From a virus (lineage: Duplodnaviria; Heunggongvirae; Uroviricota; Caudoviricetes), in IMG/VR virus record IMGVR_UViG_2558860274_000003: a DNA stretch of 15,475 nucleotides, one strand, 5' to 3'. Below, piece by piece: positions 9,251-10,557 of this stretch. Position numbers and translations under genes: made by a program. Positions within the stretch are counted from its first letter, which is position 1; the number at the start of each line of letters is the position of its first letter. The notes beneath the pieces are model-generated. The model was not told where the DNA came from, ran no database searches, and saw nothing but the letters and a program-made list of their open reading frames with translations.

Positions 9251-9808
9251 TTGGCAAAAATAGATGATTATCAGCCAAGCCAAGTAGAAGTTGATAAAGT
9301 ACTTTATTGTAAAAAAATAGTTAACTTTTCTGGCGTTAAATGGAAACAGAAACCAAGTCGCTCTGATATGTGGCTACAAGCTCATATCATCCCCTTGGAT
9401 GAGGATTGTATACCTATACAAGGGCTAAAGTTTGAACTGAAATGGAAACCAGATCAGGATTCAGAACCTGATGACCCGATTTCTTACCCTAAAATAAATA
9501 TTATTGCTTTCTATCATAACAAGAGGGTTTTCGCGGTAGATACCTATCACTTTGACAAACACACGAATAGTTACAAGGTCGATCATCCGAAGTACCAAGA
9601 TATCATTTACGGTGCTCACTACCATGTATACTATGAAGAAGCTGGATACTATAGTGATAGAATAGCGTTTCCAATCGAAGATGACATAAACCCAGATGAC
9701 CTGGTAGGGTATTGGAATTACTTCTGTAAACATCTGAACATAACTTACTCTGGGAGAATACCTTTACCGCTTGAAGATGAGTCGGGGCAAATGGGGTTTG
9801 GAATATGA
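9251..9808 (+). CDS. Hypothetical protein A (185 aa), acidic, Tyr/His-rich, no recognisable family; first gene of the cI-linked cassette
   Basis: ORF starting 39 nt after the cI stop on the same strand. The only in-frame start near the 5' end is TTG 9251 with a weak upstream AGGG; the next ATG is codon 40 (9368). No hydrophobic segments. Contains a HYHVYYEE motif. The stop overlaps the start of gene B (ATGA at 9805-9808). Confidence 0.55.
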   Translation: MAKIDDYQPSQVEVDKVLYCKKIVNFSGVKWKQKPSRSDMWLQAHIIPLDEDCIPIQGLKFELKWKPDQDSEPDDPISYPKINIIAFYHNKRVFAVDTYHFDKHTNSYKVDHPKYQDIIYGAHYHVYYEEAGYYSDRIAFPIEDDINPDDLVGYWNYFCKHLNITYSGRIPLPLEDESGQMGFGI

Positions 9809-10557
9809 TGTGCTCAACAGTGATCTCACAACTAGGTTTCGAATGCCATCCAATAGGCAAGACCTTGAGAATTATCAGTCCATTCACTTACTGTGATGAT
9901 GGAGAGCATGTCGGTGCCTTTATCCGTGAAGTCAATGGTAGGTATTTAGTTAGTGACAGATGCGATGCCTTAATGAATATGGAGGCAAGAGGGATCTCGC
10001 TTACCAAAAAACGACTTGATGAGATACGACAATTACTGCTTAAAGAAGGCGCAGAACTCAATGCTCGAGGAGAAATCATTGCTTGGGCAACAGAAAAGGA
10101 TGTCGGTGCGATTACATCGAACATAATTAGAGCTGGTATACTCGCATCAACTTTGTCGTTAGACTGGTATCAGCCAGTTCAAGCTGAAAAGTTTGAAAGT
10201 ATGGTTATTGATTATCTATATCACACAGAGCTTAGAGACGCACTTTCTCTTCGTGAAAACGTATATGGCTTGAGTGGACATCAAATTACCGTCCCTGTAA
10301 CAATAAAAACCGACATACCTAAATACGTTTTTACATCAAGCGTGAAACACGGAGGAAGCTGGAATAGTGCTTACTCATTGCTTGGGAAACTAATTGATCT
10401 TAAAGCTTCAAGTGAGGAGTATAACAACAGATTTGTTGTTATAGACAGCGAAGCAATTGGTGATCAAATGCAACAACTCTCCTTACTCTTCCATGAATCA
10501 AGCCAAGTTCTACCATTCTCCAAAAGAGAGACTTGGATTAAGAGACTTGCAGCATAA
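9805..10557 (+). CDS. Hypothetical protein B (250 aa), no recognisable family; second gene of the cI-linked cassette
   Basis: ATG overlaps the stop of gene A (translational coupling). Soluble-looking protein. Immediately followed by a strong intrinsic terminator. Confidence 0.65.
   Translation: MMCSTVISQLGFECHPIGKTLRIISPFTYCDDGEHVGAFIREVNGRYLVSDRCDALMNMEARGISLTKKRLDEIRQLLLKEGAELNARGEIIAWATEKDVGAITSNIIRAGILASTLSLDWYQPVQAEKFESMVIDYLYHTELRDALSLRENVYGLSGHQITVPVTIKTDIPKYVFTSSVKHGGSWNSAYSLLGKLIDLKASSEEYNNRFVVIDSEAIGDQMQQLSLLFHESSQVLPFSKRETWIKRLAA

Follow-up and report, generated by a model that had tools for sequence, protein, structure and literature searches.

The DNA considered here is a 15,475-nucleotide stretch of the IMG/VR virus record IMGVR_UViG_2558860274_000003 (Caudoviricetes), referred to below as the window. 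It holds a degraded lambdoid prophage that lies next to ompT and envY and is broken by the insertion sequences (IS) IS2, IS66, and IS3. Directly behind the prophage gene for the cI repressor, and ahead of that for the antiterminator N, two overlapping genes, here called A and B, form a cassette that is a candidate for a defense system expressed in the lysogen. The locus is organized as follows.

8228-8443, minus strand: cro-like repressor gene (71 aa), divergent from cI; Pfam HTH_3, 4e-12.
8444-8515, no strand: OR/PRM/PR intergenic region with operator-like AATACAATATGT; half-sites in common with 10730-10800.
8516-9211, plus strand: cI repressor; Pfam Peptidase_S24 1.3e-28 and HTH_3 2e-10; RefSeq coding sequence of 696 nt.
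9212-9250, plus strand: cI-A spacer, 39 nt; AGGGCGG lies 7-13 nt 5' of the TTG, a possible ribosome-binding site.
9251-9808, plus strand: gene A, 185 aa, TTG start.
9805-10557, plus strand: gene B, 250 aa, coupled to A through ATGA.
10561-10590, plus strand: intrinsic terminator closing the cI-A-B transcription unit; stem of 8 bp with 6 G-C pairs, followed by a U tract.
10730-10810, plus strand: OL/PL-like region with operator-like palindromes AATACAAAGCG and ACAAATTGTATT; repeats in common with OR.
10851-10877, plus strand: nutL-like site; boxA-like GCTCTTTAAACAA at 10851-10863 and boxB-like hairpin GTCGA-CTC-TCGAC at 10865-10877.
10994-11266, plus strand: antiterminator N; Pfam N_peptide, 3.4e-32.
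11283-11864, minus strand: sieB, superinfection exclusion, a neighboring lysogen-expressed defense gene; Pfam SieB, 2.5e-22.

This layout agrees in all coordinates with a preliminary description made from the sequence alone, including the extents of A and B, the 39-nt gap, the ATGA overlap, and the strong terminator that precedes OL/PL, nutL, and N. That description also placed the cassette where lambda carries rexAB, and the cI and N flanks recognized by Pfam bear this out; the cI-to-N region is a recognized hotspot of mosaicism, occupied by rexAB in lambda and by bstA in BTP1 (PMC8585504). The start codon of cI is uncertain (8510, 8516, or 8554), its stop TGA lies at 9209-9211, and the counterpart of the cro-like gene in the homologous locus L001 is a helix-turn-helix (HTH) regulator according to RefSeq. 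At the junction of A and B, the ATG of B (9805-9807) overlaps the TGA of A (9806-9808). The G+C-rich terminator stem spans 10561-10582 and is followed by UUUUCUUU; its computed folding energy of -14.6 kcal/mol (z = -3.7) was equaled by none of 200 shuffled sequences. A terminator search of the cI-A spacer was negative, the spacer folding just as its shuffles do (z = 0.43), and sigma-70-like matches that might provide A and B with a promoter of their own occur at chance level, with 5 seen and 6.5 expected. Operator-like half-sites (AATACAA/TTGTATT) that lie 3' of the terminator recur at OR, and it is from these shared repeats that we infer both the operators at 8444-8515 and the OL/PL identity of 10730-10810. 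The boxB-like hairpin also emerged from the terminator and hairpin scan; the boxA and boxB assignments are a reading of the sequence against the consensus. An open reading frame (ORF) of 60 aa at 10834-11016 on the plus strand (RefSeq hypothetical WP_000438342.1), which spans the nutL-like site, overlaps the start of N, and has no Pfam match, is probably not a real gene.

The TTG at 9251 is the first possible start of A because a TAA at 9245-9247 closes the frame upstream. Moreover, residues 1-15 of A (MAK.DDY.PSQ.EVD) show little or no variation among 18 homologs of 59-71% identity. Between them, the upstream stop and the conserved N-terminus dispose of the possibility, raised in the preliminary description, that the ATG at 9368 alone is used and the product is a fragment. 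In most lineages A has a non-ATG start (TTG here and in Aeromonas; GTG in Klebsiella, Salmonella, Yersinia, Providencia, Photorhabdus, and Pantoea), and the TATGA(TG) junction between the two genes is conserved across homologous loci. The combination of a non-ATG start with the ATGA overlap leads to an expectation of low, coupled translation and suggests that low, coupled expression of A and B has been selected.

The tendency of the two genes to occur together, which the preliminary description had proposed to examine, proves to be without exception among loci with enough flanking sequence, even for relatives down to ~21% identity. A lies directly 5' of B on the same strand in all 32 other loci covered by the profile searches and in each of the 80 IMG/VR contigs with a relative of B, so that the two constitute an obligate, translationally coupled pair. 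Among seven remote A relatives (21-32% identity) that were looked up, six are followed by a gene of the DUF1828 type, mostly with a 4-nt overlap; the ORF downstream of the seventh overlaps A by 4 nt and is cut by the contig end. In an exhaustive hidden Markov model search of 1.84 billion representatives, relatives of A made up only 20 clusters, and no more than 6 close loci came from scanning GTDB genomes; the diverse B alignment was too variable to serve as a scan query. Between genera for which the synonymous rate (dS) is unsaturated, the ratio of nonsynonymous to synonymous substitution rates (dN/dS) is 0.03-0.19, indicating that the cassette is under purifying selection. In the D3-like Pseudomonas phage VB_PaD_phPA-G, an unannotated A homolog (PP083311.1, ~14515-15033; locus L034, 2986-3504) overlaps the B homolog by 4 nt, and an extra gene of 216 aa with a weak match to PDC-S48 stands between CI and the pair.

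The location of the pair within prophages is likewise conserved. In 80 viral loci, the gene 5' of the cassette falls into 31 distinct classes, each examined through one representative (12-67% identical to the cI of the window); HTH_3 is found in 28 of the 31 and Peptidase_S24 in 26. The positional conservation that the preliminary description proposed to look for in other prophages is thus present across very different immunity regions. A repressor followed by A and B is also the layout in Aeromonas, Thorsellia, Klebsiella, Photorhabdus, Salmonella, and the D3-like Pseudomonas phage, hosts that include Enterobacterales; in the Klebsiella and Salmonella loci the upstream gene is a short HTH repressor lacking an S24 domain, that of Klebsiella being of the Rac type. 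On a few short contigs, remote pairs adjoin a resolvase gene instead of a repressor. From the variety of upstream repressors it follows that the cassette moves as a unit into the repressor operons of heteroimmune phages.

Viewed from its flanks, the slot is correspondingly variable in content. The cI and N flanks are common to 262 phage records, six of which carry most of the query, and Stx1_121427 is a seventh with the cassette. With the same cI and N, phage 2G7b (locus L003, 1312-2163) has in the slot a 283-aa protein without a family, phage 2B8 (L004, 1340-2197) has an NYN-domain protein whose matches to the HEC-09 and NYN models of PADLOC are weak, and Stx2a_WGPS8 (L005, 1714-2235) has a 173-aa protein without a family; Stx phages as well carry other ORFs between cI and N. 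The G+C content of the cassette is 38-40%, compared with 47-50% for cI and N.

Carriers of the cassette include the viable phages ev017, ev207, PhiR57_1, and PhiR63_2; the PhiR phages most likely come from Brenes & Laub 2025. Of 5426 complete Escherichia coli genomes, 241 (~4%) contain the cassette at an identity of at least 99%, among them the B2 strains Nissle 1917, CFT073, and ATCC 25922; B2 strains that are extraintestinal pathogens or probiotics commonly have it. It also occurs in prophages of Salmonella, Klebsiella, Yersinia, Aeromonas, and Pseudomonas.

In E. coli Nissle 1917, prophage 3, which lies next to icd, contains the same cI-A-B-N-sieB block. Its resistance to lambda and Stx phages was concluded to be aided by an unidentified prophage 3 factor beyond a small cloned gene, "pr" (Bury et al. 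2018, PMC5987069). The pr gene is not the A-B cassette, as the 410-bp amplicon on which it was cloned (Bury et al. 2018, PMC5987069) is too short for a cassette of 1.3 kb. As a lead only, A-B and sieB might account for part of the unexplained factor.

The two proteins differ in how much their sequences reveal. Protein A (isoelectric point 5.3) has no hydrophobic segment, its maximum 19-residue Kyte-Doolittle hydropathy being 0.45, and its structure model is mostly beta, with a predicted local distance difference test score (pLDDT) of 82 and a predicted template modeling score (pTM) of 0.81. The preliminary description saw in it no assignable motif, only the stretch HYHVYYEE; that stretch turns out to be part of a deeply conserved cluster, D97...(H104)xN106...G121xH123xH125. 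Across relatives down to 21% identity, K22, W31, R92, D97, N106, G121, H123, H125, F158, and P173 are invariant and H104 is nearly so, a pattern suggestive of a metal-binding or catalytic site. In the last 13 residues, P173, E175, S178, G179, Q180, and G182 are invariant even though the tail is predicted to be disordered (pLDDT <50), as is typical of docking peptides. A belongs to PHROG family 2017 (phrog_2017). It matches DUF6978 below threshold over residues 104-164 (best 1e-4; 5 of 15 family members); a profile search of 5.8 billion proteins yielded no DUF6978-annotated relative, and with matches this weak a firm tie to that family was dropped.

Protein B (isoelectric point 5.9) likewise lacks a hydrophobic segment (maximum hydropathy 1.19), so that its description as soluble-looking stands. 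It is not featureless, as had been thought: residues 26-110 match Pfam DUF1828 at 33.5 bits, against a cut-off of 22, as do remote homologs, and the C-terminal part has a nuclease-like fold. In PHROGs it falls in family 1960 (phrog_1960), where no function is annotated. An AlphaFold2 model (pLDDT 84, pTM 0.54) has two domains, and the low pTM is read as uncertainty in their mutual orientation. In this model the N-terminal domain (~1-121), which contains DUF1828, has a fold like those of YbjN and type III secretion system chaperones. The C-terminal domain (~129-250) has an alpha-beta-beta-beta-alpha-beta core resembling that of restriction endonucleases and is DUF1829-like; its deepest invariants are S157-G158-H159, W186, G194, and D198. 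DUF1829 gives no match to this domain in the B of the window at E<=10. Remote B homologs match it below threshold (E 0.049 and 0.12, profile positions 1-63 and 1-86 of 87), and because these weak matches fall exactly on the second domain, B can be regarded as a divergent DUF1828-DUF1829 protein. The DUF1828 domain (9805-10170) also has four cysteines, at residues 3, 14, 31, and 53, the first two of which are nearly invariant even in remote homologs; they may form a redox or metal site.

NCBIfam gave no match for A or B, the A and B profiles had no significant match among solved structures (best E 0.21 and 0.85), and a characterized homolog with a non-defense function, which the preliminary description had reckoned with as an objection, was not found in Pfam, NCBIfam, PHROGs, or PDB. 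Among the PADLOC defense-system models, B matches PDC-M24B, with PDLC04540 at 6.1e-10 (residues 2-248; profile 4-253 of 256) and PDLC04539 at 1.3e-7. A has a weak match to PDC-M24A (PDLC04536, 4.8e-4) confined to residues 104-163, the region of the His cluster, and the three PDC-M24A models are matched by 3, 3, and 1 of 15 family members; the match of A would probably lie below the PADLOC thresholds. PDC-M24 is one of 145 unvalidated "phage defence candidates" in PADLOC-DB v2 (Payne et al. 2024 bioRxiv 10.1101/2024.01.29.577857), proposed on the ground that FAM_00129>>FAM_00065 (153 occurrences) lies inside BREX, DISARM, or type I restriction-modification (RM) loci. In PDC-M24 as in the window, a small A gene is followed on the same strand by an adjacent B gene of the DUF1828 type. 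The two differ in their surroundings, as the window subfamily resides in prophage repressor operons, and BREX, DISARM, or type I RM context is absent from all A-B neighborhoods examined, which are prophage early regions and a few short contigs with a resolvase gene. Judged from these profile matches, the A-B pair is a distant prophage-borne relative of PDC-M24; as the latter is unvalidated, the match supplies a name and not a function. Thus the earlier statement that the pair cannot be named as any known defense system has to be qualified, given this distant relation and PHROG families 2017 and 1960. Literature searches returned no match for "PDC-M24" and mentions of DUF1828 and DUF6978 in unrelated lists only. 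Gifsy gipd474, considered as a possible relative, is a different, ATPase-containing single gene.

Genomic context makes a role in defense plausible. The interpretation favored here, to which a probability of roughly one half is assigned, is that A and B make up a two-protein module against phages, expressed in the lysogen and carried as exchangeable cargo of the repressor operon. In a lysogen the two genes would be co-transcribed with cI from PRM and translated at a low, coupled level, and their products would shield the cell from superinfecting heteroimmune phages. B would be the core of the module, its DUF1828 domain serving in sensing or docking; type III secretion chaperones and YbjN-type regulators, which share the fold of this domain, bind extended peptides. 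Binding or cleavage of nucleic acid would fall to the DUF1829-like C-terminal domain with its restriction-endonuclease fold. A, with its Asp/His/Asn/His/His cluster as a possible metal site, would dock on the chaperone-like domain of B through its conserved disordered tail, either holding B inactive or adding a second activity, until an infection cue frees or activates the complex and phage development is halted. A more detailed version specifies an undescribed mechanism in which A, a novel-fold His-cluster protein, acts as sensor or second enzyme, B joins a chaperone fold to a Ser/His/Asp endonuclease-fold domain, and the pair rides in repressor operons against heteroimmune temperate phages, the carrier probably having an inbuilt means of escape; in this full form the proposal is doubtful. 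As there exist both viable carriers and phages with the same cI and N that hold other cargo, the defense hypothesis is directly testable by clean genetics.

Several observations weigh against a defense module of this kind. B does not preserve the canonical catalytic residues of PD-(D/E)xK nucleases: K173 and position 176 of beta3 vary, and the start of beta2 carries an invariant SGH in which His replaces Asp; B therefore may not be a nuclease, although a non-canonical site comprising H159 and D198 may exist. The structure models of A and B derive from shallow alignments of 18 and 25 sequences. The resemblance of A to PDC-M24A and DUF6978 is weak and limited to the C-terminal third, and PDC-M24 is itself only an unvalidated candidate. 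A place behind a repressor suits non-defense functions as well. Finally, no experiment on the A-B pair was found in the literature consulted, and earlier testing (e.g. Brenes & Laub 2025) is possible.

Among other explanations, the one that best survives is that the pair acts like a toxin-antitoxin addiction module, one protein toxic and the other neutralizing it, which stabilizes the prophage or the surrounding DNA and affects phages only secondarily. Two small soluble proteins whose translation is coupled, with the stoichiometric coupling conserved, are what such a module would offer, and the nuclease-like fold of B, the persistence of the pair in a heavily degraded prophage, and the location of some remote pairs on mobile DNA, where they adjoin resolvase genes and not a repressor, all fit; in addition, the DUF1829 protein DS-6B is thought to be an antitoxin-like partner (PMC13092281). 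Pfam, NCBIfam, and PADLOC, however, assign neither A nor B to a family of toxins or antitoxins, neither protein has the HTH or ribbon-helix-helix autoregulator domain typical of antitoxins, a promoter of their own does not rise above chance, and placement in repressor operons in 28 of 31 classes would be needless for an addiction module. This explanation is unlikely as an alternative, and it is not exclusive of defense, a toxin-antitoxin role and abortive infection being mutually compatible.

Distinctly unlikely is a function as an accessory of the lysis-lysogeny circuit, in which the pair would modulate repressor cleavage, induction, or the establishment of lysogeny, or protect prophage DNA. 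Strict linkage to repressors across unrelated immunity types is just what this explanation predicts, the anatomy is most simply explained by co-transcription with cI, and the N-terminal domain of B resembles YbjN/DUF2170-type regulators. Yet phages with the same cI, operators, and N carry unrelated genes instead, so that A and B are dispensable for the switch; the cassette serves both LexA-type and Rac-type repressors, which are induced differently; and PDC-M24 relatives are found inside RM and BREX loci without a repressor. Very improbable, lastly, is another kind of lysogenic conversion (stress tolerance or virulence) or phage counter-defense during infection: the AT-rich, moron-like character of the cargo, its frequency in B2 strains that are extraintestinal pathogens or probiotics (CFT073, Nissle 1917, and ATCC 25922, for example), and the virulence phenotypes to which bstA, in the same slot, was first linked (PMC8585504) are offset by the cytoplasmic nature of A and B, which have neither signal peptide nor membrane segment, by their lack of similarity to known virulence, stress, or anti-defense families, and by a position behind cI and 5' of a terminator that isolates them from PL, when counter-defense genes would be expected in the early lytic operon.

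The state of the prophage around the cassette had been taken as a further sign of selection on the host side. The window does show this degradation: everything beyond cro has given way to IS66 and IS2, ea10 is cut by IS3, and a truncated gam is joined to a C-terminal integrase fragment (15119-15475), the sole integrase remnant; none of the complete E. coli genomes covers more than 50% of the window, which may therefore derive from Shigella or an enteroinvasive E. coli. The survival argument itself is weak, because the identity of at least 99% in 241 E. coli genomes means that recent acquisition could explain intactness; the dN/dS values between genera are the better evidence of purifying selection.

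Other features of the window are as follows. A 149-aa ORF at 12338-12787 on the plus strand, flanked by ral (12078-12278) and by the truncated ea10/DUF2528 gene (12983-13198), has two hydrophobic stretches and no Pfam match; it looks like inserted cargo because the ral-ea10 gap is only ~180 nt in PhiR57_1. A leucine-rich-repeat (LRR) ORF at 3016-3789 on the plus strand, with a weak Pfam LRR match, runs into the IS2-like element at 3714-4987 and is read as resembling the N-terminal part of IpaH-type effectors. A complete IS66-family element occupies 5054-7387, in place of the prophage genes beyond cro. Rfam identifies an ALIL frameshift pseudoknot at 13531-13647, inside an IS3-family element (13250-14466), and a lambda cIII thermoregulator at 14727-14785, upstream of an intact cIII gene (14740-14904).

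Lambda RexAB occupies the same slot after cI and before the terminator and PL, and also consists of two genes, presumably expressed from PRM in the lysogen. A and B nonetheless share no sequence similarity with RexA and RexB, differ from them in gene sizes and order, and match no Rex family at E<=1 in any of Pfam, PHROGs, NCBIfam, and PADLOC. RexB is a polytopic inner-membrane protein, reportedly an ion channel (PMC8585504), whereas the maximum hydropathies of A and B are 0.45 and 1.19. With neither a family match nor a membrane segment, homology to RexAB is ruled out, and because both proteins are soluble the pair is not a mechanistic analog of RexAB either. BstA of the Salmonella prophage BTP1 offers a parallel in genomic behavior, as defense cargo that lies 3' of diverse prophage repressors with its own terminator across Gram-negative prophages (PMC8585504); it differs in being a single protein, dissimilar to A and B, and its self-immunity element aba has no identified counterpart at A-B.

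Other likenesses concern the domains of B. In DS-6/HipAD, an experimentally validated two-gene defense system, DS-6B consists of DUF3037 and DUF1829 and is the non-kinase partner, with predicted DNA binding (PMC13092281). DUF1829 is the usual companion of DUF1828 and is the family that remote B homologs match weakly in their C-terminal domain; the partner of DS-6B, however, is a HipA-like kinase and not an A-like protein, and its N-terminal domain is DUF3037 and not DUF1828. The layout of B, an N-terminal alpha/beta sensor-like domain followed by a C-terminal nuclease-like domain, resembles that of Can2, although the N-terminal domain of B is not a CARF domain as in Can2/Card1. From both Can2/Card1 and the type II restriction endonucleases PspGI, NgoMIV, and BstEII, B is set apart by the lack of conservation in D...(D/E)xK, S157-G158-H159 and D198 being the residues that are invariant instead.

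If the favored interpretation is true, the pair would provide a first functional handle on the DUF1828, DUF1829-like, and DUF6978-like domains and on the candidate PDC-M24. That entries for PDC-M24 and in PHROGs already exist qualifies the novelty of such a system. As a defense system, the pair would add a widespread module to the short list, represented by RexAB and BstA, of those that occupy the slot between repressor and N.

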